Assembly (NCBI GenBank): GCA_041659805.1
Contig: JBAZXP010000001.1
Span: 966,841-1,030,840, forward strand
Source of the DNA: Microgenomates group bacterium
GTDB taxonomy: Bacteria; Patescibacteriota; Microgenomatia; Daviesbacterales; UBA10151
Length of the DNA stretch: 64,000 nt
Direction of reading: 5' to 3'
Part shown: in pieces, positions 7,720 through 29,351 of the stretch
How positions within the stretch are numbered: the first letter of the stretch is position 1
How the letters are laid out: each line of letters starts with the position of its first letter
Notes under the pieces: model-generated
The model's input: the letters and a program-made list of their open reading frames with translations, nothing else
The model's database searches: none
Told to the model about the DNA's origin: nothing
Made by a program: the position numbers and the translations under genes

Positions 7720-8272
7720 GAAACCAAAAATGAATGTGCCTTACTTGTTTGAATGTTCCTCTTACCAATTTTGTATCAATATTAATCGGTCTTTCAAATA
7801 AAATTACCTTATCAGGAGTTAGTCTTAAAACAGTCATCACTTTGGCTATAAATTCAGCCGCAATAATCCTTTCTGTTGCCGGACTTGCCAACCAGATTAA
7901 AGATTGATTTAAGTCATCTGGTAACCAATATGGAAATAAATTTGGAGCTGCAGCCATATCAGAAGGTCCCAAAAAATCTTTTACCTGTCTTTCCAAATCT
8001 TCTTTTTTTTGTGCGTGATACCTATTATATTCATCTTCTGTCTTTATAGGCAAAAGTTCCAAATGACGTATTTTATCTCTGTCTTTTAAAAGTGAGTTAA
8101 ACTTTGGATAAATTTTGGGATCAATAATTCCCGGTTTTTTAAATTCTCTTCCCAATAAAATCTCAGGTGGTGTCATAATTCCCAAAACATCATCAATTAA
8201 TTCTTTATCCACAGATATATCCTCCAAATCAGTTGTTCTTAAAATATTTGGAATAAATAAAAGTTCTTTCAT
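7709..8272 (-). CDS. hypothetical protein, C-terminal H-x-H-x-hydrophobic motif (possible HIT/GalT-like)
   Basis: 187 aa ending ...VRHIHFWFPTS; 4-bp overlap with the upstream PurA-like gene implies co-translation. Confidence 0.3.
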   Translation of the reverse strand: MKELLFIPNILRTTDLEDISVDKELIDDVLGIMTPPEILLGREFKKPGIIDPKIYPKFNSLLKDRDKIRHLELLPIKTEDEYNRYHAQKKEDLERQVKDFLGPSDMAAAPNLFPYWLPDDLNQSLIWLASPATERIIAAEFIAKVMTVLRLTPDKVILFERPINIDTKLVRGTFKQVRHIHFWFPTS

Positions 8273-9579
8273 ATTATATTTATTGTTTTATCCCCCGCTT
8301 TAGGCCCACTTGATGTTATAACTATAGGTACTTTAATTTGATCCTGAATAAATTGAACATATTCAGATGGAGGCAAAATATAATTTGGTGTGCATTTTTG
8401 TAACATTTCCCCCAATTTTTGCTGATAAATATTATCTGTTGGGTGCATAACTTCAATTTTTTGTAATATTTCCCCTGTCTCAGAGGTATAAGAATTACAT
8501 ATTTTCCATTCCGGCATGCTCTTTAATTTGTCCAAATGAGTTAAGGCAATCCCATCAACAGACCCCAAAACTTCAACAGCATACCTGAGGGTAACTAAAT
8601 CAAAAAACCCTACTCTAAAATTACCCTGCCAGGGATTAGTTAAATTACTGGTATCAGGCAAGAGCTTAGATAATGTTTTATCTTCTGTGGGAAAAGGGCC
8701 TGCTCCGTGACGCGTAGCATATGCCCTGATTACTCCCAATTTGTATACTTCCCCCTGATATCTACTACACCAAATAAGCTCATCAGCATTTCCAAATGTA
8801 GTATCCCCGTGGGTAATATATGGGTAAAATCCATATTCTTGATCTAGAAGCACACCTTGTGCTCCTTCAAAAATAGCAGTTCCTTTCTGATCTAATATCT
8901 TTTTTAAATAATGTCTGTCCACAATTTTAGCAACAGAAATAAATTCTTTATATAAATCCAAAGTGTAGTTTATAGCCTCAGGACTGTCTAAAATCTTCAA
9001 CTCTCTTTTTACTAAATCTGATTCAGGAAAGCTTCCTCTTAAATTCTTTATCTTTTTCAGTTGAACATCACGAAGAAATCGTAATTTCTTTTTTGCCGTT
9101 TTTGCGTCAAGTAAATCTTCCATCATCAAAGTTTCTCTGCCAAACTTTAAATAATCTGCCATAGCTTCACTGACCCCTCTGCCTGTACTGCTTGTTGTAT
9201 TTAAAGTCAGCAATCTGTTTGATGTCTGATGAAAAGGAGTGATCACAGGACATTCCCCTTCTATAGTAGTTTTTTGGAAAGCATCATTAATTCCCATTTC
9301 CTTTAAACCCCGTTCTTCTTTTAGCATGCTCAAAGGATCAACCAGCATAAATCTGGAAAGATGAGTCTTTGTGCCACCTAAAGTTCCACTGCCAAATTGG
9401 GAAAAAATATGCTGATGTCCTTCAGGACTGATTACATTATGCCCGGCCTGAGCACCTCCGTTATAACGGATCACAGTATGTGCATTAAATTCCCTGCACA
9501 AAAAATCAGTAAGGCTGCCTTTTCCGGCGTCGCCGAAACCTAAATCTGCTATTTGTATTACTTTTTGCATTTCTTTCAT
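8269..9579 (-). CDS. purA: adenylosuccinate synthetase family protein (divergent PurA)
   Basis: PurA hallmarks present: GDAGKGS P-loop (canonical GDEGKGK), GGAQAGHNV, TGRG, FEGAQGVLLDQEYGFYPYIT, AYATRHGAGPFPTE, THLD, ITSSGP; 436 aa. Confidence 0.65.
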   Translation of the reverse strand: MKEMQKVIQIADLGFGDAGKGSLTDFLCREFNAHTVIRYNGGAQAGHNVISPEGHQHIFSQFGSGTLGGTKTHLSRFMLVDPLSMLKEERGLKEMGINDAFQKTTIEGECPVITPFHQTSNRLLTLNTTSSTGRGVSEAMADYLKFGRETLMMEDLLDAKTAKKKLRFLRDVQLKKIKNLRGSFPESDLVKRELKILDSPEAINYTLDLYKEFISVAKIVDRHYLKKILDQKGTAIFEGAQGVLLDQEYGFYPYITHGDTTFGNADELIWCSRYQGEVYKLGVIRAYATRHGAGPFPTEDKTLSKLLPDTSNLTNPWQGNFRVGFFDLVTLRYAVEVLGSVDGIALTHLDKLKSMPEWKICNSYTSETGEILQKIEVMHPTDNIYQQKLGEMLQKCTPNYILPPSEYVQFIQDQIKVPIVITSSGPKAGDKTINII

Positions 9580-9638: not shown

Positions 9639-10631
9639 CTACAGAAGCCTATATTTAGGCTTATCTGTATCTATCGGACCTAAATTGGTCCCACTATCAC
9701 CTTTAACTAACCTGCCATGCACTGGCACTACTGCGTTCCTGACAGCCAAGATTGTACTCTTACTGACTCCAAACTCTGCCAGGTTTTTCGAACCTGCGTC
9801 AAGATCAGTTGTCCCTTCGGATAAACCGATTTGTAGAGCAATTGTCTCGCAAACAGCCTCAGGATCTTCAAGCTGCAGGACATTTTGTCCTAAAAGCTTT
9901 CTCCAGGAAGCTAAAACTTCCGGGTCTCTCCCATTGCTAGCTGCAGTAGGCAGAATGTAAAAGGTCTCGTATCGTTTTTTCACTTCTTCAAATATCTCAA
10001 CAGTTGAGATATTTTCCTGAAGTGTGTCACCGATCACGTCAGCAACCTCTCTGGCTTTAACATTCGGATAAACCATTTCATCGCCGATAATAAACAAATA
10101 ACCTTTGTGTCTTCGTATATTCCAGCAATCAATGTCCGTATGTCTGGCCATAAAGTAGGTAGCCAACTCATAGCTTTCTGTTTTTTGAGCACCTCCGCCA
10201 CCTTCCAAAAGAATTTTTTCCAAATTCTCATCCATCCTGTTATCAGATTCAAACTGACCAATCTGAAGCGGAACACTGTCGCAGGTTGCGTCCCCAATGG
10301 CACCGAACAAAAACTGTGGATGCTCAGCCCAACCTTTCCGTACTACCAACCCGTTTAATTCCCCCAACTTTTTCTGGAAAATTTGGGGCAGAGTTCTCAT
10401 AGAACCCGTCACATCAAACAGTGTTGCAATGGCTAAAGAATATGCATGTTCTGCACTATCCCGACTTTCACGGAACCTGATACCTTTTGGATCAAGATTC
10501 GGATGAGCTTTCCACTTATCGCGGGAATACCGCTTAGTGTAATCATCATAGTCAAAAACCTTTTTTCCACTGGCTACTCTGGCCTTCTCACGTTCAGAAA
10601 AAACGTCTGTTGTCCATTCACCACCTCCCAT
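9639..10631 (-). CDS. von Willebrand factor A (vWA) domain protein
   Basis: MIDAS motif DVTGSM (DxSGS), downstream GGGGAQ and FIIGDE; likely start is MGGGEW at 10631, preceded by AAGGAGGTGA; the 9639..10673 ORF may be over-extended. Confidence 0.6.
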   Translation of the reverse strand: MGGGEWTTDVFSEREKARVASGKKVFDYDDYTKRYSRDKWKAHPNLDPKGIRFRESRDSAEHAYSLAIATLFDVTGSMRTLPQIFQKKLGELNGLVVRKGWAEHPQFLFGAIGDATCDSVPLQIGQFESDNRMDENLEKILLEGGGGAQKTESYELATYFMARHTDIDCWNIRRHKGYLFIIGDEMVYPNVKAREVADVIGDTLQENISTVEIFEEVKKRYETFYILPTAASNGRDPEVLASWRKLLGQNVLQLEDPEAVCETIALQIGLSEGTTDLDAGSKNLAEFGVSKSTILAVRNAVVPVHGRLVKGDSGTNLGPIDTDKPKYRLL

Positions 10632-11757
10632 TTTTATCACCTCCTTTCGCATTTTTTGGCATACTAAATACATGAAATTTCTTAGGACCCCATAAATCTA
10701 CAATCATAGAATCAAATTCTTCGAGTAATCCCCAGGCATCTTTTGGTCTTTGTTTCGCGGGCAACAAACAACCTCTGAAAAAAGCCTTTATTTTGGGATG
10801 AATATCACTTGGCAATTCCCCTAATTGAGGGTTACCTCCCAAAAGGTAAATCATATTTTTAGCTCCCAGATAAATATCCAATCCGGGACTCACCGGTTCT
10901 TTTTTGAATACTTCAGGCGGATACCAACTCTCCCAGTCACCGGATAGCGCCTGTAACCGTCCGCCTGTTGGATCTTTTTCAATTACAGAATATGACCATT
11001 CATTTATAACCAGTCCGTGTTTTTCCGGTTGGACAAAAAGATTTTGCGGCAGGGCAGCCCCATGAATTAAATTATTTTGATGTGCAAATCCCAACCCTAC
11101 TAATACTCTTCTGAATATCCATGCCATATCTTTTTGATCAATTCCTTTCGGATAAGCGTTTTTTACATCAACAAAAGAAAAAAGCTCATCCGGCCTTTTA
11201 GAAAAAGCATTAATGTTTTTGCGGATATGGTTGCTGTCCTCAAAAATAAAAGAATCAATTAAACCGGGAAAATACGGACGGAAATTATCAAAATTATCTA
11301 CTTCAGCCAATTTGCGAAGCATTTTAGCCTCATTTTCTACAAATTCGTTATCAAGAGGACTTTTTGCAACTTTAAATATGGCTGGAATATTAGTGCCACC
11401 TTCTTTATAGGTAGCCCCATGAACATTGCAAAAATCTGTTTGTGAGAAGGAATCAAAAATTTCATATTCCCTGACTCTGGTTCTGATGGTTAGCAAAACA
11501 TCCGGTGGAATTTGACCATAAGTTCCCAATTTTATTTTTTCCTGAGCTCTTTCCCAAAGCCTGGTCAGATTAATAAAGGCATCTTGAGCCTCTACTCCAC
11601 CATTTAAATCCGGATGAGTGAGCTTGCTTAATTGTCTGTATGTGGAAAGTACAGTTTTCAGAGGGTCGGCTGCTTCGCCTAATCCACCAAAGACATCTTC
11701 AGGATGTTTGGCATTGATAATTTTTTGTGTTATTAAATCTGACTCATTTTCTTTCAT
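10618..11757 (-). CDS. J-domain (DnaJ-like, HPD) fused to a degenerate protein-kinase-like (pseudokinase) domain
   Basis: YRQLSKLTHPDLNGGVEAQDAFINLTRLWE is a J-domain helix II-III with HPD. A kinase-like fold follows: AIFKVAK (beta3 Lys), ENEAKMLRKL (alphaC Glu), LIHGAALPQNLFV replacing HRDLKPEN (no catalytic Asp), no DFG, WYPPE replacing APE. Likely start is the ATG at 11757 preceded by GGAGGA, rather than the GTG at 11775. Confidence 0.55.
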   Translation of the reverse strand: MKENESDLITQKIINAKHPEDVFGGLGEAADPLKTVLSTYRQLSKLTHPDLNGGVEAQDAFINLTRLWERAQEKIKLGTYGQIPPDVLLTIRTRVREYEIFDSFSQTDFCNVHGATYKEGGTNIPAIFKVAKSPLDNEFVENEAKMLRKLAEVDNFDNFRPYFPGLIDSFIFEDSNHIRKNINAFSKRPDELFSFVDVKNAYPKGIDQKDMAWIFRRVLVGLGFAHQNNLIHGAALPQNLFVQPEKHGLVINEWSYSVIEKDPTGGRLQALSGDWESWYPPEVFKKEPVSPGLDIYLGAKNMIYLLGGNPQLGELPSDIHPKIKAFFRGCLLPAKQRPKDAWGLLEEFDSMIVDLWGPKKFHVFSMPKNAKGGDKNGRW

Positions 11758-11763
11758 GTTGTA

Positions 11764-11826
11764 AGTGTCCTCCACACACTAACTATAGTGTAACTATTAC
11801 ACAAAGGTTAGTGTTTTGTCAACACC
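11764..11826. promoter_or_regulatory. three tandem palindromic operator-like sites AGTGT-N7-ACAC(T/A/C) at 11764, 11787 and 11810 (23-bp phasing), overlapping the RBS/start and a TTGACA -35 on the minus strand
   Basis: AGTGTcctccacACACT (perfect), AGTGTaactattACACa, AGTGTtttgtcaACACc; the third spacer is the reverse complement of TTGACA, followed by a TGTGTAATAG-like -10. Confidence 0.5.
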
Positions 11827-12124
11827 CTATTTTGATTCTTGACGATTTATTATTAGAGCCCTACAATACCAATCTAGAAGACTGCTCTTTAAAAAATGAG
11901 TAAAGTTGATTTAGATTATTATGATAGGTTAGAGGTTAGCCCCCGTGCCAGAGCCTCTGTGGTGAACTTTGCTTAAAAGGAGATTTACTGGCAACAGCTG
12001 TGAATGTTTTTCAGGCTTTTAAATCAGTTTATCCTGATCCAACAACCCGCGAAAAACAAAATCCCAATCTATTCAGGTTACCCCAGAAATTATTCCGTTC
12101 GATGTTTAAGTAATACCTGAAATT

Positions 12125-15100
12125 TTAACGTAGAATACTATCAATAGTGTGATCCACTAAAATCCTTTGTCTTCTATCCCCTATTTTGGGCAGAATAACT
12201 CTTTTGCAGACATCTTTTACATTTGCAGCATGATTCATACGAAGTGCAATATTGACCATTTCCCGAAGAGAGGTTGTAAAATCCATGGGTTCATTAGATT
12301 CACCAACTTGATATGCCTGATACATCCTTCGAAGGTCATTAGCTACCCTGATTGCATCATATAACCTTCTGACATCTTTTTCTAAATTTGCGTTGGCTTT
12401 AAGGAGCATATCTCCTCCATTGGTGGTATCTCTGTTTATAATATAATCCCAGGCTTGTTTAAATTCCTTTTGTTGTAAACTTTCTAAAACATGAACATAT
12501 GAAAACAACATTTCAGCCTCATCACTTCTATAATAAGTTCTTCCATTTCTTGGTTCTTCAAATGGAGGATAAGCAACCTCTATAATATCTCCTCTGGAAA
12601 GAATTGTTTCAGCTAATTTATCTACACCTGCATAGTCCTGAGGATTCATAGTACCTGCTAAAATAACTGTCGGATCAGCAATAACTTCATGCTGCACTCC
12701 ACCTTCATTAACAACCAACTTCCTTCTATAATCAAATAACGGATTTAACATTTTTACAATTCCCGGTTTGACTGTATTAATTTCATCAAACAGAATAATT
12801 GCCCCCGGCTTTTGTAATGCTTCTATTAAACGTGAAGGTAATTTATAAGTTCCTTTATCAGGATCATAATAAAATTCATAGGTTAAATCTTCTTTTGCTG
12901 TATTTTCATTACAAGCAATCGTCACAACTTCCCTATTGGAAAGATTAGCCAATACATCTATTAATACATTTTTCCCTGTTCCTGCTTCTCCTTCTAAAAT
13001 AGTAATCCCCATATGATTATCCATTTGGATATTCAGGCTCTCTGCTAACTCTTCCAGTTTTTTATTTTGATATTCAGATATTTTCCATCTGTCATTATAT
13101 TCAGGAACTTCCCTTTTTAAGCCTTTGAAATGATCTTCTGCCTCTTTTCTGTGTCTTTCGATCATACGAGCAGTATCTTCAAAGTTTAAATCAGGTATAA
13201 CCGGCGTCCTATGATCTGGACTTGGATGCCAAAGTCTACCTTGTTCATCCTGAAATGCTAAATCAGCATGCATGGCTCCGGCAATCGGAAGTAAAACAGG
13301 CCTCCATAAACGGGGCGGCTCTTTATAAACCGGAAAGCTAACTTGACCAAACTTTAATTCTCCTGTATCTCCAACAACACCCAACTCTTTTCTGTGTTCA
13401 ATATCCTTTTTGCGTGCACCCATCACTACTTCCAATTTTTTCTCTTCGATTTCACGAAGTTCAGGTGGTAAGGCAAAAATCTTGGCTCTCCAGGCAGTAA
13501 CCAAAGGATTTCTGTCAAACCTATCTAATTCTCTTGTATCTGAAAGCTCTGTAATTTGCTCCCTTAATGAAGCCAAATCTTCTTTGGCCTCTTCTACTAA
13601 CTGAGCCCATCTTAAACGTTGTTCCTCTTCCAGCTGCCTGCCTCTGGATTCAAGCTGAGATCTTTGTTCAGATTTGATAATATTTAGCTTGTCCCTAAGC
13701 TCTTTTCTTACCTGTGGGTCCCGGACATTTGCCAACATCATCTCAAATTGTTGTGCTTCAATTGTAGTTCCAAACATTGCCAACTCCTGAGAAGAACCAG
13801 TTTCTTTAATAAGCTGTTCTATATTAGGAAAGGCACCTTGGATTGCATCAGATAATTCTTGTTGGTATTGTCCAACAACCATTTCCTTTTTAGCTTGTAT
13901 CGATCTTAACCTCTGTTCTATATTTCTGCGGGTTGCAGGATCAGTAACATCTGTTTTTTGACGAAGCTCCAAAAGTCTGGCAAATTCTTCGTCCAAACCG
14001 ATCGTATCCCCCATACTTTTTACCTCCGTTATTGATTTTTCATATTCGGCAAGTTGATTATCAAATTCAGCTGTCCTAATCCCACTCAACTTTTCTCTGG
14101 CCTTACTAATAAATTCATCTACTACTTCACCATATGCCTGGTTTGCAGGATCTGCTTTAAGACCCTGAAGCCTATCCATAATCTCTTCAATTGCTTCCGG
14201 GTCGGTTGTTTGAACTAAGGGTTCATCGACTTGTCTGGCGATTGCTTCACGTAAGGTATTCGCAACATCCTCTTCAGAAATTCCATTACCTTTTTGTTTT
14301 TGAACTCTTTTAAGTTCCAAAGATGCAAACCTTTCCTGCATTTCACGAAGTTGTTCTTCTCTTTTTTCATGAGCTAACTCGCTACCACCTGTAGGAATAG
14401 CCTGAAAATTTGTTTGTATTTCTCTTAATTTATTTTCAGTATCAACATATAAAATATCTCCTTGTTTATCGACCAAAATTGGCCCTAAAACATTATTGAA
14501 TTCCTTAACTACCTCTCCAGATTCTTTATCAATGATTGATAGTTTTTGGCCAGATCTGACAATGAAAAAATTAACATTCGGATCAATCTCTATTTCTTCG
14601 GGATTCTCAACTCTTATTTGAGCTTCAAGCAAAGGCCGAGCACTTCTATCCGCTACCCCATTCAAATCCAGGCTATATATTCCTCCAGTATTAATAAAAT
14701 AGAGCTTACTTTGATCATTTGGGTCTAAAGTTGGCTTAGAACCACTAAAGCTAGCCAGCTCCTTTCCATCTGAACCATTTATTTTGAAAAAATGCGCTTC
14801 CTCTTTAAGTGTTAACTCTCCTATAAGTTTTGCTGACGGATCAATAAGTTGACTAAACACTTCATTAGTAACTGTCTTTTTAGTCGCAGGTTGTGTAGGA
14901 TTAATAAAAAAATAGTTTTCTTCGGTTTGAAAAATAAAGCCAGTCGTATTTTTTTCAGGAACCTTTCGAATCTTCATTTCCCATTTTCCGACAGGAATAA
15001 AAAATTCAGCGTTTTTTCTAACATCTGTCTTATCCATCATAAAGCCATATTCTGCTCCATAGCGTGTTCCTAACTGATTTTTAGCGATTTTACGCCAAGT

Positions 15101-15499
15101 AGTCTGAATTGTTTCCTGCGCTGCTTTTTTGGAAAAACCTATTTTTCTAAGCAAGTAACTAAAATCGTCTGAATAATCATTAGTTTTATCAACTGCTATG
15201 TAAGTTCTACTATTCGCATCAGCTATATCATAGGTTGTAGGGTCTAGATGAACTCTTGAGAGATTACCCAGACCATCAAACATTAAAGCTTCATAATGAT
15301 TTTCGATTTTAGACAAAATCCCGACTACTTCATCGATCTTTTTTATATCCTGTACTTCTCCTACTAATCGTTCCTTGAATCTTTCTTCAGGCAAAAGCTG
15401 AGTCTCTACTGTTTGAGCCAAAAGACTTCTTTGAACCAATATTTTTTCTTCTTCTTTCATATTATAGGGTATTTTACGCTTTTCATAATCAAATTTCAA
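12125..15499 (-). CDS. giant coiled-coil protein with C-terminal MoxR/AAA_5-type AAA+ ATPase domain
   Basis: 1124 aa. The N-terminal ~330 aa look like beta-rich repeats and ~450 aa are heptad-rich coiled coil. C-terminal AAA+ motifs: GEAGTGKNV Walker A (GKN variant), ILFDEINTVKPGIVKMLNPLFD (MoxR-like DEINRA Walker B region), AGTMNP sensor-1. Confidence 0.6.
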   Translation of the reverse strand: MKFDYEKRKIPYNMKEEEKILVQRSLLAQTVETQLLPEERFKERLVGEVQDIKKIDEVVGILSKIENHYEALMFDGLGNLSRVHLDPTTYDIADANSRTYIAVDKTNDYSDDFSYLLRKIGFSKKAAQETIQTTWRKIAKNQLGTRYGAEYGFMMDKTDVRKNAEFFIPVGKWEMKIRKVPEKNTTGFIFQTEENYFFINPTQPATKKTVTNEVFSQLIDPSAKLIGELTLKEEAHFFKINGSDGKELASFSGSKPTLDPNDQSKLYFINTGGIYSLDLNGVADRSARPLLEAQIRVENPEEIEIDPNVNFFIVRSGQKLSIIDKESGEVVKEFNNVLGPILVDKQGDILYVDTENKLREIQTNFQAIPTGGSELAHEKREEQLREMQERFASLELKRVQKQKGNGISEEDVANTLREAIARQVDEPLVQTTDPEAIEEIMDRLQGLKADPANQAYGEVVDEFISKAREKLSGIRTAEFDNQLAEYEKSITEVKSMGDTIGLDEEFARLLELRQKTDVTDPATRRNIEQRLRSIQAKKEMVVGQYQQELSDAIQGAFPNIEQLIKETGSSQELAMFGTTIEAQQFEMMLANVRDPQVRKELRDKLNIIKSEQRSQLESRGRQLEEEQRLRWAQLVEEAKEDLASLREQITELSDTRELDRFDRNPLVTAWRAKIFALPPELREIEEKKLEVVMGARKKDIEHRKELGVVGDTGELKFGQVSFPVYKEPPRLWRPVLLPIAGAMHADLAFQDEQGRLWHPSPDHRTPVIPDLNFEDTARMIERHRKEAEDHFKGLKREVPEYNDRWKISEYQNKKLEELAESLNIQMDNHMGITILEGEAGTGKNVLIDVLANLSNREVVTIACNENTAKEDLTYEFYYDPDKGTYKLPSRLIEALQKPGAIILFDEINTVKPGIVKMLNPLFDYRRKLVVNEGGVQHEVIADPTVILAGTMNPQDYAGVDKLAETILSRGDIIEVAYPPFEEPRNGRTYYRSDEAEMLFSYVHVLESLQQKEFKQAWDYIINRDTTNGGDMLLKANANLEKDVRRLYDAIRVANDLRRMYQAYQVGESNEPMDFTTSLREMVNIALRMNHAANVKDVCKRVILPKIGDRRQRILVDHTIDSILR

Positions 15500-18989: not shown

Positions 18990-19028
18990 TATTTGACTTT
19001 TTTGGGTTTTCAGCGTATCTTTGTGTGT

Positions 19029-19721
19029 ATGAGTGACACTATCAAACTTCCGGAAAAATATAATTTGAACGATTATCAGTGCCCTTCTGTAACTGTTGAT
19101 ATCCTTGTTTTTACAATCGAAGCTTCTGAACTAAAAGTATTACTCATCAAACGGGCAATCGAGCCTTTTAAAGACGAATGGGCTTTACCGGGAGGATTTA
19201 TAAAGATGGATGAATCCTTAGAAGCAGCAGCCTTAAGAGAATTAGTACAGGAAACAGGTGTAAAAAATGTTTATTTGGAACAACTTTATACTTTTGGGGA
19301 TACCAACAGAGATCCCAGAAGCAGAGTTATTACTGTTGCCTACTTCGCTCTTGTTCCAAGCGCTAAATTGGATTTGAAAGCATCAACAGACGCAGCTGAT
19401 GTGGCCTGGTTCCCTATAAAAAAACTTCCCAAATTAGCTTTTGATCACAAAAAAATTATTGATTATGCAATGAACAGACTAACAAGCAAGATTGAATATT
19501 CTAATATTGTATATGGATTACTTCCGATTAAATTCCGTCTAAGTGAGTTGCAAAAGGTATATGAAGTTATTTTAAGTAAAAAGATGGATAAAAGAAATTT
19601 CCGTAAATGGATACTTTCCTTAGGGTTACTTGAAGCCACGGGAGAAAAAGACACTGATGGCGCCCACAGACCTGCAGAACTTTTTAAATTTAAAAAAAGA
19701 GAACCAGTTCTATTTGACTAA
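19029..19721 (+). CDS. nrtR: Nudix-related transcriptional regulator (NrtR-like): N-terminal Nudix domain and C-terminal helical/winged-helix-like region
   Basis: Near-canonical Nudix box GGFIKMDESLEAAALRELVQETGV (one Glu to Gln change) followed by an ~80-aa C-terminal domain containing KRNFRKWI; sits next to a full NAD salvage operon. Start is the ATG at 19029; the ORF track uses TTG at 18993. Confidence 0.5.
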   Translation: MSDTIKLPEKYNLNDYQCPSVTVDILVFTIEASELKVLLIKRAIEPFKDEWALPGGFIKMDESLEAAALRELVQETGVKNVYLEQLYTFGDTNRDPRSRVITVAYFALVPSAKLDLKASTDAADVAWFPIKKLPKLAFDHKKIIDYAMNRLTSKIEYSNIVYGLLPIKFRLSELQKVYEVILSKKMDKRNFRKWILSLGLLEATGEKDTDGAHRPAELFKFKKREPVLFD

Positions 19722-19768: not shown

Positions 19769-20473
19769 TCATTGAGCCTTACCATAAATCTCAATGATTC
19801 TTGGAATTTCTCCAATGCTGATAATCTTAGCTCCAGCTTCTTCCATCTCTAATAAGGCCTGCTTTGCTCCTTCTGGAGTAATACCTGATATTGCATCTTC
19901 TACGATGTACGTCTGTATACCGCGCTTTTGCATCCCTACGACTGCAGCCAGATCACAATACTCAGTCGCAACATAATAAACAATAGCTGCTCTTACTCCT
20001 GCTTCTTTGAGAACAGTTTCAACAGCAGGGTTTGTAAAAACATCATAATGTTGTTTTTCAAAGATTATATCTTTGCCTGATCTTGCAATCTCTGCCAACT
20101 CATCTGGACTATAACGTCTGAAGTTGTCTCCCTCAGCAATCTTATTTTCAACAATTAAAGCTGAATCAGATGCTACTTCAGGAATAAAATCTATGCCAAA
20201 TGTTCCGTCTTCATTTAACTGATTGTATTTCCAATCCATGCAATGAAGCGGAAAAGGGCCTCCGTTATCGATAAGCTCAGGATCATCCATAAAATGTCTG
20301 TCCCTACTCTTAAATCTCCTGATACCTGCATCTTTTAGCATTTTTCCGACAGAAGCAGCATTTTCTCTGATTTCTTCAGCACCAGGAACGTATAATCTTC
20401 CGTCATTTTTTCTCATGAAATCATTCTGTGCATCAACTTCATAACCTATTAATTCTTTTGACATTTTTCTCAC
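19769..20473 (-). CDS. pncA: nicotinamidase/pyrazinamidase (isochorismatase-like cysteine hydrolase)
   Basis: LIGYEVDAQNDFM N-terminal signature and ~230-aa isochorismatase-family length, in an NAD salvage operon. Confidence 0.65.
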   Translation of the reverse strand: MRKMSKELIGYEVDAQNDFMRKNDGRLYVPGAEEIRENAASVGKMLKDAGIRRFKSRDRHFMDDPELIDNGGPFPLHCMDWKYNQLNEDGTFGIDFIPEVASDSALIVENKIAEGDNFRRYSPDELAEIARSGKDIIFEKQHYDVFTNPAVETVLKEAGVRAAIVYYVATEYCDLAAVVGMQKRGIQTYIVEDAISGITPEGAKQALLEMEEAGAKIISIGEIPRIIEIYGKAQ

Positions 20474-20479
20474 CTCCCT

Positions 20480-21385
20480 TCAAGGTAAAATTGCAACTCT
20501 AAGCGGGTGTTCGTGAGCTACAGAGATACTGACTTTACTTCCTTCTTCAAGGTTGAATGAAAAACTATCGTCACTTGGATCAGGATCAAAATCTATTTCT
20601 GTATCTTTCCCTAGAGAAAAAATTGTTAACTCCTCACCTAAATCCAAATCCCCAATTTCCAAAAATCCTGAATCAAGATCTTTTTCTCGGCAAACAAAAC
20701 GGGCATGAGGGGCAGTTCTGGGAAAATGAGAATATTTTTCCATAACTTCATCTTTCCAGTGTCCGACAATATTTCTGTACCAACCTGTAAGCCCTGAACC
20801 TGTGGCAATAACCAAACCGGAATTTTTTTGCTCGTCATTTATTCCGCGATAATTAATAATACTTCTGCTAATCCCTCTGTTTTTCAATTCACCGACAAAG
20901 ATTTCTGATAGAGCAAAAAACGGCAAAAGCTCTCCGTCTAAAACTGCCTGTAATCTTGTCCATTTTTCTGTTTCAAAGGAATTTTTATCCAGACAATCAC
21001 GGAGGTAGTCAATATGTTCAGGTTTAAAAGACAAAATCCCACCTTTAGAAGTTTCCGGATCAGAATTTATTCCAACAACCAGCTGGTCTCCGGTCACAAA
21101 ACGTGACACATATTGCAAATGATTATCTCCTCCGGGACTAAAAATAATGTTATATTTTTTAGCGACATCTACATTAAAATCATCGCGGTGGATTATTGGC
21201 ACGTTTAAAGCTTTGCCTAATTTTTCAATGTTCTCTATCTGTCTGTAATGACTGGCAATTTTTTTATCAGCATCTGCCCCCTGCTTTTTCCACAAATTAA
21301 TCTGATCCTGCATAGAAATATTGGAAGTTTTCATTTTCCATTCAACTACAGTGAGTTTTGGTACGATTACAGCCTCAACGCTCAT
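20480..21385 (-). CDS. nadK: NAD kinase-like (ATP-NAD kinase family, divergent GGDN motif)
   Basis: IIFSPGGDNHLQY (vs GGDGT), VVGINSDPETSKGGILSF (vs NxGxLGFL), ATGSGLTGWYRN (vs SGSTAY). Confidence 0.5.
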   Translation of the reverse strand: MSVEAVIVPKLTVVEWKMKTSNISMQDQINLWKKQGADADKKIASHYRQIENIEKLGKALNVPIIHRDDFNVDVAKKYNIIFSPGGDNHLQYVSRFVTGDQLVVGINSDPETSKGGILSFKPEHIDYLRDCLDKNSFETEKWTRLQAVLDGELLPFFALSEIFVGELKNRGISRSIINYRGINDEQKNSGLVIATGSGLTGWYRNIVGHWKDEVMEKYSHFPRTAPHARFVCREKDLDSGFLEIGDLDLGEELTIFSLGKDTEIDFDPDPSDDSFSFNLEEGSKVSISVAHEHPLRVAILP

Positions 21386-22320
21386 TTTATAAATCTCCTT
21401 TTCCCGATATAATCTTTAATGAATCGATTATGATCAAACGCTAGATTATCAGGTATTTGATCCCAAGGGAATACTTTAATATCAACGGCATCATCACCAG
21501 CTCTTAAGACTCCTCCATCAATCCTTTTTTCATAAACCATAGTGACGTAGTGACCTCTCGGATCTCTATCGGGATCTGAATATTGTCTGAATTGATCTTC
21601 TAAGGAAACTTCAATATCAAGATTTGTTTCTTCTTTTGCTTCCCTAACAGCAGCACCTTCAACAGTTTCCTTTCCATAATTAATATAACCTCCGGGGATT
21701 GCCCATTTTAAGGAATTCGGATCGCCTAATTTTTCTTTTCTCTGGATTAAAACAATACCCTCATCTCTATAATTAAGAATTACATCTGCTGTAACTGCAG
21801 GGTTTAGAAAACGCTCCCTACCGCTGATGCGCTGCTCTCCTTTGATCTTTTTTAGATGAGCAATCACTTCTTCTGGTACCAGGTCTTCCCACTCTCCACC
21901 GTTTTTAATCATTTCCCGAACATCTGTTGCGCAAATCGGTAAATCATGTATCGGCTTTCTGATTTCAATCCCGTATCCGTCAAATATTCTGCTTACCCAA
22001 TTATTTCCTGTGTAAACTATGCTGAATCTTTCAGGACTAAGGATATCGATTAGCTTTCTCCATTTTTCATCATTGTAAACATCGGGAATACCGAAAACTG
22101 CAAATGGTTTTTCCATTCTCTTTTCCAGAGTTGCTTTAATCATTTGCAAGCGTTCATTAAAACTGAAAGGGTTGTGCTCTGTATTGCCTTCCTGAGAAGA
22201 TCCAATTCCGATTAATATTTTTGCAACATCTGGTGCTCTTTCAATTTGTTTGACAACAGAAAGATGCCCCAAGTGAAATGGTTGAAATCTACCTACAACT
22301 AATGCATTTTCTTGTTTCAT
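21382..22320 (-). CDS. nadM: bifunctional NadM-type NMN/NaMN adenylyltransferase with C-terminal Nudix (ADP-ribose pyrophosphatase) domain
   Basis: ALVVGRFQPFHLGH (archaeal-type NMNAT HxGH) plus C-terminal Nudix box AIPGGYINYGKETVEGAAVREAKEETNL; likely start is MKQENAL at 22320. Confidence 0.75.
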   Translation of the reverse strand: MKQENALVVGRFQPFHLGHLSVVKQIERAPDVAKILIGIGSSQEGNTEHNPFSFNERLQMIKATLEKRMEKPFAVFGIPDVYNDEKWRKLIDILSPERFSIVYTGNNWVSRIFDGYGIEIRKPIHDLPICATDVREMIKNGGEWEDLVPEEVIAHLKKIKGEQRISGRERFLNPAVTADVILNYRDEGIVLIQRKEKLGDPNSLKWAIPGGYINYGKETVEGAAVREAKEETNLDIEVSLEDQFRQYSDPDRDPRGHYVTMVYEKRIDGGVLRAGDDAVDIKVFPWDQIPDNLAFDHNRFIKDYIGKRRFIK

Positions 22321-22324
22321 TTTT

Positions 22325-23953
22325 TTACCTCCTAAATTCATGACTAATCGGGATTCTTCTACCAATACCGAATGATTTCGGAGTAACTTTTATGCCGGGA
22401 GCAGCTTGTCTTCTTTTGTGTTCATTACGGATAATTAAATCCCAATATTTTTCGACCAACGGACGTGGGTATTCTTTTAAAACTTCTTCTATAGTTGCCC
22501 TATCCTCTATTAAACGATTTACAATTGGCACAATCAGGTCATAATCGGCTCCAAGGCTCCCTTCATCTGTTTGATTCTCACTAAGCTCTGCTGAAGGCTC
22601 TTTAATAATTGAATTTCGGGGAATCACTTTTCTATAAAGATTAGCCAACTCATAAACTTTTAATTTATCAACGTCAGATATAGCAGCCAGGCCTCCTGCC
22701 ATATCTCCATAAAGGGTACAGTAACCAAGCGCTGTTTCTGTTTTATTTCCTGTGCTGATTACTAAAGCATTTTCCTCATTTGCCTGTGCCATTAAAATCA
22801 TTCCCCTGATTCTTGCCTGAATATTTTGATTAGTTAAGTCTTTTGGATCTTTTTGCAAAACTTGTGATATTTCACCAACTAAAGTTTTTCGTGTTTCTTC
22901 GATCGGAATGATCTGAAAATTAATCCCTAAATTTTCAGATAGTTTTCTTGCGTCATCCACACTTCCGGAACTTGAAATTCTGGATGGCATTGTAATACCT
23001 GTTACGTTTTCTTTGCCCAAGGCTTGAGTTGCCAAAGCAGCTACTACTGCTGAATCGATCCCCCCAGAAAGTCCAATAAAAGCCTTATTAAAATTTGATC
23101 TTCTGAAGTATTCTTTAATCCCTAAAACCAAAGCCTTATTTAATTGATCAATTGAATCAGTATTCTGAGGTAATATTTCCTTTGGATTATCCAAATCTAC
23201 TTTAACGCTATCTTCCTCAAACGCCTTCCCCAGACCTAATAATTTTCCATCTGCCCCTAAAACTATACTTTGACCGTCAAAAACCAATTGTCCGTCATAA
23301 CCGTCCTGTGAGCCAACTAAATTGGTATAGATAAAAGGCTTTTTGTATGTGTTAACAACTCTTTCAATAAGATTTTTTCTGACATTAAATTTATCTAGAT
23401 AAAATGGAGAAGCAGAGATATTTATTAAAACATCTGCTCCTTTTTCAACCAACTCAGATGTAACATTTTTTTGATAACCATTACTCCAAAGGTCTTCACA
23501 AATTTCTATACCTAATTTCTTTCCACAAACTTCATATAATTTGTGTGACCTGTTGGCAGAAAAATATCTGGTTTCATAAAAAACATCATAGGTTGGCAGA
23601 AGTGTTTTATCTTCTATTCCCAAAATTTTTCCATTTTGTAAAATCGCTGCGCTATTAAATCTGATTGGTGTGCCATCAGGCCCAATGATATTTGGGTCTG
23701 AATCAACAAAACCCACAATTGCTGTAATTCCTTCTGTTGCGGCAACAATCCGAGATAAAGCTTCTTTATTTTGAGAAATATAATCAGAATAAAGCAACAA
23801 ATCCATAGACATATATCCTGGGATTGTCAGCTCTGGAAAAACTATCAAATCAGATTTGTTTAATTTTGCCTGCTCAATATAAGAAATTATTTTTTGGGTA
23901 TTTTTTTCTATACACCCAGGATCTGTATTAATTTGTGCAAGTTCTAATTTCAT
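22325..23953 (-). CDS. nadE: glutamine-dependent NAD+ synthetase (nitrilase domain + NAD synthetase domain)
   Basis: N-terminal CN-hydrolase domain (FPELTIPGY), C-terminal GLSGGIDSAVVAALA PP-loop; 542 aa. Confidence 0.8.
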   Translation of the reverse strand: MKLELAQINTDPGCIEKNTQKIISYIEQAKLNKSDLIVFPELTIPGYMSMDLLLYSDYISQNKEALSRIVAATEGITAIVGFVDSDPNIIGPDGTPIRFNSAAILQNGKILGIEDKTLLPTYDVFYETRYFSANRSHKLYEVCGKKLGIEICEDLWSNGYQKNVTSELVEKGADVLINISASPFYLDKFNVRKNLIERVVNTYKKPFIYTNLVGSQDGYDGQLVFDGQSIVLGADGKLLGLGKAFEEDSVKVDLDNPKEILPQNTDSIDQLNKALVLGIKEYFRRSNFNKAFIGLSGGIDSAVVAALATQALGKENVTGITMPSRISSSGSVDDARKLSENLGINFQIIPIEETRKTLVGEISQVLQKDPKDLTNQNIQARIRGMILMAQANEENALVISTGNKTETALGYCTLYGDMAGGLAAISDVDKLKVYELANLYRKVIPRNSIIKEPSAELSENQTDEGSLGADYDLIVPIVNRLIEDRATIEEVLKEYPRPLVEKYWDLIIRNEHKRRQAAPGIKVTPKSFGIGRRIPISHEFRR

Positions 23954-25125
23954 GCAGCTAACCCCAACCTTTCTAAAGTTTCCCTAACTATCGATTTGTC
24001 ACCGGAGATCTTTCCTAAATCGTCTGAAAGTTTTACTACAGCTATTTGATCCAAACTTTGTGGCTTGGTAATATGAAACATTTTAATTACCATATTTAAA
24101 GGAATTCGACCAACATCATTAGTGAAATTTGTACCAATTCCAAATAACGTATTAATTCTGCCTTCGTTATATTTGAGAATTTCCAAAGCCCGTGGAATAT
24201 CTAAAGCATCAGAGTATAGGGCTGTAAAATCCATTGGATTTAAGCCAAGTTTATTTTGAATATGATTAATAATTTTATCTGTCCAGGCTTCTGGATTACC
24301 GGAATCCTGTCTTAAGGTCTTGAAAATTGCTGCCTTCTCAGACGTGTAAGACTTTAGAAAATTGTCAGTTGTATAAGTATCTGTTAGAGCTGTTGCCAAA
24401 CTTCCATTAAATTCTTTTGCCCAAATTTCCATAGCCATCTGATTGGCTCTTTCTACTCCATATATTCCAGACAACCCTTGTACCCATTCATGAGCAAAAG
24501 TCCCTTTTGGAGATAAGTCATACTTCATCGCCAATTCAACGTTACTGGTTCCTAAAAGCGAAGCTCCTCCATCTCTTTTTAAAATCGATATGAGTTCGTC
24601 ATGCACAAAATAAGAAGCCCTTCGTCTAGTTCCAAATTCCAAATATCTGGCGCCATTAGCTAGAAATATTTGAGCTTTTTTTGAAGCCTTTTCTTGCCAA
24701 CCTTCTACTGGTGGTTGCCCTGTTTCTTGAAAATAAAGTTCAGAAATAGTTGCCATCAAAGGAACTTCCCAATAAATTGCTTTGTGCCAAGGTCCTTCTA
24801 TATCAACAGATAAATCTCCTCCGTCTTGTTTTATAGAAACTTCTTCCGGACTAAAACGGTATTTAGAAAACCAATTAAGATAATCAGCTGCAAGATATGG
24901 GCAGCCAACTTCTAAAAACTTTCTTTGTTGCTCAGTCAGAGATAAGTCTGCCATTAAATCTACCTGCTCTTGTAGTTTTTGACCGAATCCATTAGGAAAT
25001 TCTGTCTTTGCACGGTTAATAAACTTAAACCCTGCATCAATATCTGCAAAGTTATGAAAAACTGCCTGACCCATTGTCAGCTTGTATAAATCGTTATCTA
25101 ATAATGTATGTATAATTCTTTCCAT
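23950..25125 (-). CDS. pncB: nicotinate phosphoribosyltransferase
   Basis: N-terminal LLDNDLYKLTMGQAV matches the PncB signature (DxYKxTM); 391 aa. Confidence 0.75.
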   Translation of the reverse strand: MERIIHTLLDNDLYKLTMGQAVFHNFADIDAGFKFINRAKTEFPNGFGQKLQEQVDLMADLSLTEQQRKFLEVGCPYLAADYLNWFSKYRFSPEEVSIKQDGGDLSVDIEGPWHKAIYWEVPLMATISELYFQETGQPPVEGWQEKASKKAQIFLANGARYLEFGTRRRASYFVHDELISILKRDGGASLLGTSNVELAMKYDLSPKGTFAHEWVQGLSGIYGVERANQMAMEIWAKEFNGSLATALTDTYTTDNFLKSYTSEKAAIFKTLRQDSGNPEAWTDKIINHIQNKLGLNPMDFTALYSDALDIPRALEILKYNEGRINTLFGIGTNFTNDVGRIPLNMVIKMFHITKPQSLDQIAVVKLSDDLGKISGDKSIVRETLERLGLAA

Positions 25126-25166
25126 TTTTTATTTTTCCTTTCTTGTTTATGTATTTTTATAAATGT

Positions 25167-26156
25167 TTAAACAGTAAAGAAATATTTTGACTGTTTTAGC
25201 GATTCATCTATTAATTGAATAGCTGAATTTAAACGGGTTTTTTGAGAACCTTCCAAAACTACAAAATTCTTTTTTGACTTCTTAAGTTCTTCAATAAACC
25301 TCACATGCATTTGATGACGGATATGTTCCCCATCCCTTGTACCATCTTGAACAAACGGGATTTCATCCCCTGTTAAAAGATAAAGATCGTAACTATGTTT
25401 TTTAGAAACTGCTTTCACTTCCGGTGAAATTTTTCCGACATATCGTTCATTCCAAAGAGTAGTTGCAAAAGCATCTGTATCACAAATAAGTAGTCTGTTT
25501 GCTCTTCTGGCAAGAATATCCTCCAACCTGTTTTGCTCTTTTGCTATATGTACGAATTCTTTGTCTACCCACATATTCCCTTCAGGAGAAAACATCTTCG
25601 CCTCGTAATATATTCTTCCGTATTCGGGTACCCAACTCGTTTCATAATGTTTTGCTAAATCTTTTGCCAAGGTTGTGGTACCGGTAGATTCTGCTCCCAG
25701 AACACATATTTTTTTAACAAAATATGCCCTTACATTTGGTTCTAGATATTTCCAATATTTAAGAGGATTTTGTCTTATCATTGTTCCGGAACAAGGAACG
25801 TGCACTCTTTCTCTATCCACTAAAATATGTTTGGATCCCATGAATTTTGCATAAGGCTCACCATAATCCTCAGAAGTAAAAACTAAATCAGGGACGAAAC
25901 CCAACCATTCGATTGTTTTCTTAGCCCAGATTTTTGAATCATCTGGATCAAGATCGCTTTCATCGATTACCATAACTTTTACCTTTGGATGAATTTCTCT
26001 TATCCATTTTGCCCGTAATTTTGGTGAAATTGTTTGCGCTTTTTTCCCACAAACAATAACAGTTAGATGATCAACTTGAGAGCTTGCTGTATCTATCAAG
26101 TATTTATGACCCAAGTGTGGTGGATAAAATTTTCCGATTACCAATCCTTTTATCAT
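25167..26156 (-). CDS. nadR: NadR-type bifunctional NMN adenylyltransferase / ribosylnicotinamide kinase (no HTH domain)
   Basis: GKFYPPHLGHKYLI (HxGH nucleotidyltransferase) and a C-terminal P-loop kinase domain GAESTGTTTLAKDLA; start taken at MIKGLVIG (26156), which abuts the pnuC stop. Confidence 0.7.
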   Translation of the reverse strand: MIKGLVIGKFYPPHLGHKYLIDTASSQVDHLTVIVCGKKAQTISPKLRAKWIREIHPKVKVMVIDESDLDPDDSKIWAKKTIEWLGFVPDLVFTSEDYGEPYAKFMGSKHILVDRERVHVPCSGTMIRQNPLKYWKYLEPNVRAYFVKKICVLGAESTGTTTLAKDLAKHYETSWVPEYGRIYYEAKMFSPEGNMWVDKEFVHIAKEQNRLEDILARRANRLLICDTDAFATTLWNERYVGKISPEVKAVSKKHSYDLYLLTGDEIPFVQDGTRDGEHIRHQMHVRFIEELKKSKKNFVVLEGSQKTRLNSAIQLIDESLKQSKYFFTV

Positions 26157-26794
26157 TTTGTTCCTCCCATTAATGACTTGCGCCATTGCATAAGCCCTAC
26201 TATGCACATACAAAGGAATAGCGCATAAAGAACGCTTGTCAGGTACAAGCCCTTGTAGGCATATAGCCAAATGTAAATTACATCAGCAGAAATCCAAACA
26301 TACCAATTCTCAAGTATTTTTCGTGTTAATAAGTACTGCGCTACCAAGCTCATCACCGTGGTTAAAGCGTCCCAAAAAGGTGCTGAATCGTTGATTTGTC
26401 GCAGATATACAGTCATTCCGAATGTTGTAAGAATTGTTATCATTAGGAGTATTAACACGGTATTGATCCCTACGTGAGAAACTTTAAGTTCGGTTTTATT
26501 CTCCCCACCTTTTAGCCACCAGTACCAACCCAGGATTCCTAAAACTATATAGACAACCTGAAGTCCCATATCTGCAAAAAGCCTGGCTTGTAAAAATAAA
26601 ACAATAAAGAAAACATTGTTGGCGATCCCAATAGGCCAATTCCAAATATTTTGTTTTACAGTCAACCAAACACAAGCTGCACCAGTTATAAATCCAAGTA
26701 CTTCAGTTACCCCCATTGGTAAAATACTTTTCCAAGATGTATACAGCAAGGCTGCTGAAACTAAACTAAAAATTGTTAATTCTTTTTTGTTCAT
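26153..26794 (-). CDS. pnuC: nicotinamide riboside transporter PnuC
   Basis: 213-aa, 7-TM protein with WNWPIGIANNVFF; classical pnuC-nadR adjacency. Confidence 0.65.
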   Translation of the reverse strand: MNKKELTIFSLVSAALLYTSWKSILPMGVTEVLGFITGAACVWLTVKQNIWNWPIGIANNVFFIVLFLQARLFADMGLQVVYIVLGILGWYWWLKGGENKTELKVSHVGINTVLILLMITILTTFGMTVYLRQINDSAPFWDALTTVMSLVAQYLLTRKILENWYVWISADVIYIWLYAYKGLYLTSVLYALFLCMCIVGLMQWRKSLMGGTK

Positions 26795-26815
26795 ATAATT
26801 TATTTCTTTTGTATT

Positions 26816-26877
26816 AGTGTCTTTCTTACACTTACTTAGTGTATGATATACCCTTTAGTTAGTGTTGTCAATACACT
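26816..26877. promoter_or_regulatory. promoter of the pnuC-nadR-pncB-nadE-nadM-nadK-pncA operon with three tandem AGTGT-N7-AC(A/C)CT operator-like palindromes (22-23 bp phasing)
   Basis: AGTGTctttcttACACT (26816-26832), AGTGTatgatatACcCT (26838-26854), AGTGTtgtcaatACACT (26861-26877). The third spacer is TTGACA on the coding strand, a TATCAT -10 lies inside the second box and the first box sits at the presumed TSS. Confidence 0.5.
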
Positions 26878-26920
26878 ACTTTATAACAAAGGGATTTGTG
26901 TGGTTACTTTTAGAATTAAC

Positions 26921-29258: not shown

Positions 29259-29351
29259 ATTAGATATATCAACTATTTATACCTAGGATTGAATCGCTGG
29301 TCAAGATTAAGAAATAAAAATTTAATAAAAGTGATAAAATTGCTAAAGGTT

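Follow-up and report, generated by a model that had tools for sequence, protein, structure and literature searches.

A stretch of 64,000 nucleotides (hereafter the window; G+C content 36%), part of a 1.13-Mb contig in a metagenome-assembled genome of the Microgenomates group (Candidate Phyla Radiation, CPR), carries three abutting palindromes at 11761–11829, directly ahead of an operon of four genes. These encode a predicted J-domain pseudokinase (named the J-pseudokinase), a protein of the von Willebrand factor A (vWA) fold, a divergent paralogue of adenylosuccinate synthetase (named PurA-like) and a HIT-like protein, and the first three are referred to below as the trio. The palindromes are very probably three operators of NrtR, the Nudix-related transcriptional regulator, which would repress the four-gene operon and be released by ADP-ribose, with co-induction of the genes for nicotinamide adenine dinucleotide (NAD) salvage. 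Because the pairing of box and trio recurs in many phyla, the trio probably belongs to NAD/ADP-ribose biology.

Three abutting boxes at the J-pseudokinase promoter

The proximal box AGTGTcctccacACACT is a perfect AGTGT-N7-ACACT palindrome, and the middle box AGTGTaactattACACa and the distal box AGTGTtttgtcaACACc each deviate from it by one mismatch. Both steps between neighboring boxes measure 23 bp from start to start. The symmetrised consensus, derived like the weight matrix from 52 sites that all lie outside the window, reads GtTAGTGT-(A/T-rich N7)-ACACTAaC and is itself a unit of 23 bp, so that the array consists of three units placed end to end over 69 bp (Table 1).

Table 1 Predicted operators and genes of the NrtR-box system in the window.
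Feature	Position	Strand	Details
Proximal NrtR box, predicted	11761..11783		core 11764-11780; weight-matrix score 20.5, second best in window
Middle NrtR box, predicted	11784..11806		core 11787-11803; weight-matrix score 16.9
Distal NrtR box, predicted	11807..11829		core 11810-11826; weight-matrix score 9.5
Second triple NrtR array, predicted, pnuC promoter	26813..26880		cores 26816-26832, 26838-26854, 26861-26877
Seventh NrtR box TGTGTATGAGTGACACT	19024..19040		over nrtR ATG (19029); weight-matrix score 9.6
nrtR, Nudix-related transcriptional regulator	19029..19721	+	proposed binder of all seven boxes
Gene 1, predicted J-domain and kinase-like fusion	10618..11757	-	start ATG at 11757
Gene 2, vWA-fold protein	9639..10631	-	AlphaFold2 and Foldseek
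Gene 3, divergent adenylosuccinate-synthetase paralogue (PurA-like)	8269..9579	-	Pfam PF00709, 232 bits
Gene 4, HIT-superfamily-like, 187 aa	7709..8272	-
NAD salvage operon	19769..26794	-	pnuC, nadR-like, pncB, nadE, nadM-Nudix, 301-aa remote NAD-kinase-like, pncA (Pfam)

The boxes coincide with the predicted promoter elements. In the promoter scan of the minus strand, the spacer of the distal box holds a -35 element TTGACA (11822–11817) and, 18 nt on, that of the middle box a -10 element AATAGT (11798–11793) with a TG just before it. The ribosome-binding site GGAGGA (minus strand, 11768–11773) lies inside the proximal box, 10 nt ahead of the ATG at 11757–11755, and the TTGACA is kept in orthologous J-pseudokinase promoters. 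The pnuC array shares this design, with the -35 element in the distal box (TTGACA, 26871–26866) and the -10 element in the middle box (TATCAT, 26848–26843), at a spacing of 17 nt on the minus strand.

The occurrence of the palindrome in the window is far from random. AGTGT-N7-ACAC gives 9 strand matches against 0.24 expected, and none of 100 dinucleotide shuffles reaches 9. When the full 17-mer is searched with at most one mismatch, seven good sites are found, namely three at the J-pseudokinase promoter, three at the pnuC promoter and one at nrtR, and the weight matrix ranks exactly these seven at the top. The other one-mismatch matches (1.27 expected by chance) fall at 29784, in prs, and at 37875, both inside open reading frames (ORFs); the next site in the matrix ranking, at 54301, is weak and lies inside the ORF of an MFS transporter. 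All three were rejected as further NrtR boxes, being in line with chance expectation.

A sequence-only reading of the window had earlier placed the three boxes, their 23-bp phasing and the overlap of GGAGGA by the proximal box exactly where they are found here. It had also described the third box as wrapping a TTGACA with an extended -10 downstream, and the promoter scan indeed pairs TTGACA-18-AATAGT with its TG. Its statement that the palindrome stands at two promoters only has to be widened by the seventh copy, at the nrtR start codon; apart from these seven, the searches of the window returned only matches that fit chance.

The position of the proximal box raises the question of an action as RNA, in which a proximal hairpin would hide the ribosome-binding site and serve as a translational or attenuation element. 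This box is probably transcribed, and its 7-nt spacer contains the GGAGGA. The predicted fold of the 5' untranslated region, at -6.5 kcal/mol (z 0.45), is no better than that of shuffled sequence, and a search of the window against Rfam gave no match. Furthermore, the stems have only 5 bp, the spacers are unconserved and just A/T-rich, and the other two boxes, over the -35 and -10 elements, lie outside the transcript. We regard an RNA element as barely credible and treat the palindromes below as DNA operators.

The regulator and its proposed boxes in other genomes

The protein encoded by nrtR belongs to the NrtR family, combining an N-terminal NUDIX domain (Pfam, 79.2 bits) with a C-terminal NrtR_WHD domain (87.6 bits), both over their cut-offs; against the NCBIfam model NF050029 it scores 198 bits, under the 400-bit cut-off. 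Two full-length matches in the PDB were obtained, Bacteroides thetaiotaomicron AraR (5bs6, E 1e-45) and Shewanella oneidensis NrtR (3gz5, E 1e-38). The Nudix box of the window protein (RELVQE) is near-canonical, that of Chloroflexota relatives degenerate. Among the trio-associated NrtR proteins, the DNA-recognition segment LDKRNFRK does not vary, which fits a motif kept across phyla.

The seventh box spans the start codon of nrtR itself. A promoter-like site, TTGACT-17-TATCTT (18994–19022), ends 6 nt before this ATG, and the position of the box directly past it suggests that nrtR may be transcribed as a leaderless, autoregulated mRNA. Equivalent boxes cover the nrtR ATG in loci L002, L005, L006, L013, L014, L026 and L033, and the ATG falls within the box spacer in many relatives (AGTGTnnnATGAACACT).

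The comparison was extended from the target gene. A search with the J-pseudokinase protein yielded 27 homologues (90%-identity clusters), whose contigs were inspected, and a profile made from 10 J-pseudokinase sequences and scanned against one genome per species added 54 loci with a total of 848,596 bp. These belong to Ktedonobacterales, Anaerolineae, Saccharibacteria, Planctomycetota, Acidobacteriota, a Pleurocapsa and a metagenome-assembled genome labelled Gammaproteobacteria; Ktedonosporobacter rubrisoli (complete genome NZ_CP035758.1) and Dictyobacter arantiisoli are cultured hosts of a box-bearing trio. The order J-pseudokinase, vWA-fold, PurA-like is kept in essentially all loci, with the PurA-like gene syntenic with the other two in about 48 of 53. 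Perfect boxes number 39 in the 54 loci, against 0.59 expected from composition, and 31 of them lie at most 300 bp upstream of a J-pseudokinase gene (25 loci). The remaining 8 lie where an adjacent nrtR begins, and no other position has one. With up to one mismatch, sites are present in 33 of 60 loci (the 54 plus the CPR contigs) and occur twice or more in 18; the commonest spacing of tandem boxes is 23 bp (10 of 19 cases). Clustering of all neighboring ORFs identified nrtR as the only recurrent neighbor besides the trio (19 of 53 loci), and all 18 trio-adjacent NrtR proteins tested have both NUDIX and NrtR_WHD.

The boxes also follow the J domain, being found in 32 of 42 loci with this domain and in 1 of 19 without the HPD motif. 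The trio variant without an HPD J domain occurs in Anaerolineae, Pleurocapsa and Planctomycetota (L034, L036–L038, L040, L042, L045, L047, L049, L051, L054 and L056–L061). In three Chloroflexota loci (L015, L016 and L021), the vWA-like gene is present in two tandem copies or the order is vWA-vWA-PurA-J-pseudokinase, and no boxes are found.

In the closest relative, L001, whose protein is 69% identical, the array is retained with all three boxes, at -66, -43 and -21. Among the CPR relatives, the trio lies inside NAD-salvage operons in L002, L005 and L006: the first two are arranged as nrtR-(prs)-J-pseudokinase-vWA-PurA-HIT-pncA-pncB-nadM-nrtY-like with boxes at nrtR, the J-pseudokinase gene and pncA, and in L006 the trio forms the tail of a single nrtR-pncA-pncB-nadM-... 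operon with boxes at its front. The Saccharimonadaceae locus L008, at 32% identity, has a perfect box 21 bp ahead of the ATG, with nrtR, nadE, pncA and pncB around the trio. In the CPR relative L007 (6998–8371), an ADP-ribosylglycohydrolase gene follows the trio and the HIT-like gene, and a perfect NrtR box (8101) stands ahead of the next small gene.

The reverse comparison started from the regulator and used the 80 best metagenomic loci of close NrtR relatives (50–63% identity; 504,436 bp). They contain 43 perfect boxes against 0.35 expected, an enrichment of about 120-fold. Just over half of these boxes (22 of 43) lie at most 160 bp upstream of nrtR, where a box with at most one mismatch is present in 36 of the 80 loci. 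The neighbors of nrtR in these loci are nadE, pncA, pncB, pnuC, nrtY-like or unknown genes, and the same boxes stand ahead of pncA, nadE/nadD and pnuC in other loci, so that conserved boxes precede NAD genes as well as nrtR.

It could be asked whether the boxes are operators of a different palindrome-binding factor encoded elsewhere, with the nearby nrtR a coincidence, as many Ktedonobacterales loci have boxes without an nrtR within 10 kb. Such a factor is very improbable given that the motif has the NrtR-specific GT-N7-AC core and, in many genomes, extends over the ATG of nrtR. Its enrichment in loci chosen only for NrtR, the invariance of LDKRNFRK, the standing of nrtR as the sole recurrent neighbor of the trio and the boxes ahead of pncA, nadE/nadD and pnuC, which are classical NrtR targets, argue in the same direction. 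The sequence-only reading had attributed joint control of the pnuC and trio operons to a single factor, with the NrtR-like protein as the simplest candidate; this view gains support from the protein family, the core of the motif, the boxes at nrtR starts and the comparisons of 54 and 80 loci, and NrtR is the candidate that we retain.

On this basis, NrtR produced from its gene 7 kb away would act on the array, each 23-bp unit binding one NrtR dimer through two winged-helix domains. The distal unit would cover the -35 element, the middle unit the -10 element, and the proximal unit the presumed early transcribed region and the ribosome-binding site. With the boxes on these three elements, bound NrtR would block RNA polymerase at the promoter of the four-gene operon (11757 down to 7709). 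ADP-ribose, a breakdown product of NAD, would free the repressor by analogy with characterised NrtR proteins; we infer it as the effector of the window NrtR from the NAD gene context only. The trio operon, the pnuC-to-pncA operon and nrtR would then be induced together during NAD consumption.

Several observations weigh against the assignment of the array to NrtR and NAD status. The better of the two PDB matches, AraR, is an arabinose-responsive member of the NrtR family. Promoter hexamer matches are no commoner than in shuffled sequence, and CPR promoters are uncharacterised; the promoter argument is drawn from the fixed register that the hexamers keep with the boxes at both promoters and at orthologous promoters. 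The box scan of the source genome covers 64 kb of the 1.13-Mb contig, and further copies may be present elsewhere. About 20 of the 54 loci have no box, mostly the J-domain-less variants of Anaerolineae and Planctomycetota, and the CPR relative L003 has none either. Among the 80 NrtR loci, the J-pseudokinase gene is next to nrtR in one (L069). The boxes thus track nrtR, and the trio appears to be one NrtR target among several.

The trio operon, its phage relatives and its possible function

Gene 1 combines a probable J domain with a kinase-like domain. In an alignment of 24 homologues, H48 and P49 of the HPD motif, the mark of J domains, are invariant and D50 is conserved in at least 90%, and the Pfam DnaJ match is weak (17.7 bits against a cut-off of 27.8). 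The kinase-like part scores 21 bits against Pfam Pkinase, under the cut-off. The HRD motif is replaced by H-G-(A/C/S) in all 24 homologues (HGA in gene 1), and the DFG position reads E/N/D-W-S. We consider the domain a pseudokinase because the HRD aspartate is replaced and the DFG aspartate is not conserved.

Gene 2 has no Pfam match, and a profile of 21 sequences found nothing in the PDB. Its AlphaFold2 model (predicted local distance difference test score, pLDDT, 82.6) is matched by Foldseek to integrin I and von Willebrand factor A domains with a probability of 1.0, and a TM-score of about 0.65 (target-normalised) to the I domains of CD11b and alpha1 points to a predicted vWA fold. The sequence D73-x-T75-G-S77, which resembles the metal-ion-dependent adhesion site (MIDAS) of vWA domains (D-x-S-x-S), is invariant. 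Conservation is very high, at about 58–60% identity between phyla, and the more than 5266 homologue clusters are all annotated as hypothetical.

Gene 3 belongs to the adenylosuccinate synthetase family and remains far below the scores of true purA genes, with 188.8 bits against NF002223 (cut-off 402) and 176.9 against TIGR00184 (cut-off 395.55; both NCBIfam). Alignment to E. coli PurA shows that the P-loop Asp, the equivalents of His41 and Gln224 and the GTP-binding motifs are kept. At the E. coli loop Thr300-Thr301-Gly-Arg303-Arg304-Arg305, gene 3 reads P-W-Q-G-gap-N-F-R, and N-x-W-Q-x-x-F-R is conserved at this place in about 50 homologues of gene 3. In the E. coli enzyme, this loop (Thr300, Thr301 and Arg303–305) binds L-aspartate. 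Canonical purA was rejected as an identity for gene 3, the scores being under the equivalog cut-offs and the aspartate loop being replaced. Gene 4, for which the HIT hallmark would be H-x-H-x-H/Q on the C-terminal strand, has an invariant H-x-H near its C-terminus; its presence beside the trio is limited to some of the CPR relatives. The names pseudokinase, vWA and PurA-like, first given from the letters of the window, hold in the light of the 24-homologue alignment, the Foldseek match and the PF00709 membership with purA scores below cut-off. A defence system was also considered and rejected: PADLOC gave no match for the vWA, PurA-like and HIT-like proteins, and the kinase-like domain gave only weak generic kinase matches.

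The three genes are also carried by phages. About 202 records of Cluster C (Bxz1-type) mycobacteriophages have them clustered close to one end of the record, with the annotations kinase, hypothetical protein and 'PurA-like adenylosuccinate synthetase'; Mycobacterium phage ET08 (L063, 6911–11392) is an example, its kinase, vWA and PurA-like genes being gp247, gp248 and gp250. The vWA match is split in two pieces in some of these records. Both the vWA-like and the PurA-like proteins were matched in 10 Rhizobium and 6 Vibrio phage records, and in the one record opened per group a hypothetical gene of about 300 residues, the presumed vWA homologue, lies directly upstream of the PurA-like gene. In Rhizobium phage RHph_Y65, the PurA-like gene is about 3 kb from phosphoribosyltransferase-like and nicotinamide mononucleotide (NMN) adenylyltransferase/Nudix genes, a neighborhood that forms a second, weaker link between the trio and NAD metabolism. 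RefSeq names some of the phage enzymes '2-aminooxy adenylosuccinate synthetase'.

The NrtR sites could be real and still control nothing more than an ordinary purA with two passengers, which would provide a plain adenylate supply for NAD synthesis. The Adenylsucc_synt match of 232 bits and the retained catalytic Asp, His and Gln and GTP-binding motifs are in favor of this explanation, and NAD synthesis uses ATP. It is unlikely nonetheless, in view of scores under half of the equivalog cut-offs and the replacement of the aspartate loop by a family-conserved motif. Strict synteny also speaks against it: in about 48 of 53 loci, among them those of 11-Mb Ktedonobacteria, which presumably have a housekeeping purA as well, the gene stands with those of the vWA protein and the J-pseudokinase. 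In addition, phages carry the vWA/PurA-like pair.

Tentatively, and with reservations that exceed those on the operators, the trio can be pictured as an undescribed ADP-ribose/NAD-responsive module that extends from the CPR to Chloroflexota, Acidobacteriota and Planctomycetota and has been captured by large phages. In this picture, the PurA-like protein would not be an adenylosuccinate synthetase but would aminate or repair purine nucleotides with GTP and a new nucleophile, the vWA protein would be its obligate partner, and the J-pseudokinase might couple it to Hsp70 or sense a nucleotide. For the role of the operon, our low-confidence guess is GTP-dependent amination or repair of purine nucleotides with a non-aspartate nucleophile, for adenylate or NAD turnover, in which the vWA protein and the J-pseudokinase would be partner or regulatory subunits. 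Such a module, if it exists, could restore adenine where adenylate or NAD has been deaminated, or make an N6-modified nucleotide.

The operator gives a widespread trio of no assigned function a physiological handle, namely predicted induction during NAD breakdown. The pairing of operator and trio in cultured Ktedonobacteria and the presence of the genes in phages of Mycobacterium smegmatis make the link open to direct testing. The system may reveal a new branch in the metabolism of NAD, ADP-ribose or adenylates, and may bear on how phages cope with the depletion of host NAD.

Comparison with known systems and neighboring genes

NrtR sites have been described as 21-bp palindromes with a GT-N7-AC core in most NrtR groups, and both tandem sites of S. 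oneidensis prs-nadV were bound in an electrophoretic mobility-shift assay (PMC2330246). ADP-ribose suppresses the DNA binding of NrtR and thus acts as an anti-repressor, with the rationale that it signals NAD consumption (PMC2330246). Our arrays resemble the operators of Rodionov et al. 2008 (S. oneidensis prs-nadV and Synechocystis nadA, nadE and nadM-nadV; PMC2330246) in the regulator, which joins Nudix and winged-helix domains, and in the palindrome, which spans about 21 bp around a GT-N7-AC core and is arranged in tandem over the promoters of NAD salvage genes; release by ADP-ribose is the response expected of both. In contrast to the one or two sites described there, the window has three abutting 23-bp units, and its regulon adds an operon without recognised NAD function (J-pseudokinase, vWA-fold protein, PurA paralogue and HIT-like protein).

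The published regulon table comprises NAD, pentose and ADP-ribosylation genes together with the unknown nrtX-nrtY, and the trio is not listed in it (PMC2330246). With nrtX-nrtY there is already an example of conserved NrtR targets whose function is unknown, and the trio differs from it in gene content. M. smegmatis NrtR is described as an auto-repressor that controls NAD synthesis genes (PMC6800001). The window system would be similar in autoregulation, which is implied here by the box over the nrtR ATG; it differs from the mycobacterial protein, which controls the de novo genes nadA-nadB-nadC, in that the predicted targets are salvage genes and the trio, and in that the operator lies over the start codon. 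With PurA and the phage enzyme PurZ, gene 3 shares the fold and family PF00709, the GTP-binding motifs, the catalytic His and the Asp of the P-loop, and it differs from both in scoring far under the purA and PurZ equivalog cut-offs, in the replaced aspartate loop and in being always paired with a vWA-fold protein. Full-text searches of incomplete coverage found no paper on the trio or its control by NrtR, which does not show that none exists. Operators of NrtR as such are well known, and it is the trio as a conserved, cross-phyla member of the regulon that is apparently unreported.

Within the NAD salvage operon, the 301-aa protein (20480–21385, minus strand) has no Pfam match and is remotely matched by the NCBIfam NAD kinase model, at 25 bits. 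Homologues of its gene follow nadM in L001, L002, L005 and L006, and adjoin nrtR in many metagenomic loci. This NAD-kinase-like gene may correspond to nrtY in the nomenclature of Rodionov et al. As listed, the nadR-like ORF begins with TTG at 26270 and shares 118 bp (26153–26270) with the 3' end of pnuC; translation probably begins at an ATG further downstream. A few kb from the operon lies the gene for Prs, ribose-phosphate pyrophosphokinase (29190–30224, plus strand), and near it a 412-aa ORF (32191–33429, minus strand), which has no Pfam match and by eye looks phosphoribosyltransferase- or Prs-like. The window scan gave no NrtR box upstream of either gene.

Two long genes on the minus strand occupy the space between nrtR and the trio array. 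The protein of the first (12125–15499) has 1124 residues and a MoxR/dynein-type AAA_5 domain at its C-terminus. That of the second (15504–17771) has 755 residues, with a zincin-like HHEAGH motif, a linker rich in Gly and Gln and, C-terminally, a vWA domain. The pair has no full NrtR box and is not conserved beside the trio in other loci, and with neither a box nor conserved adjacency it was judged unrelated to the system.

Divergent from the J-pseudokinase promoter, the segment 11839–11977 (plus strand) has a promoter-like site, TTGACG-17-TACAAT, followed by an ORF of 26 codons (11897; MSKVDLDYYDRLEVSPRARASVVNFA). This mini-ORF is unrelated to the divergent gene of L001. Its DYY..L.VS start recalls the N-terminus of DnaJ-type J domains and another frame nearby goes on with ...AFKSVYPD..., and the segment may be a decayed gene for a small J protein.

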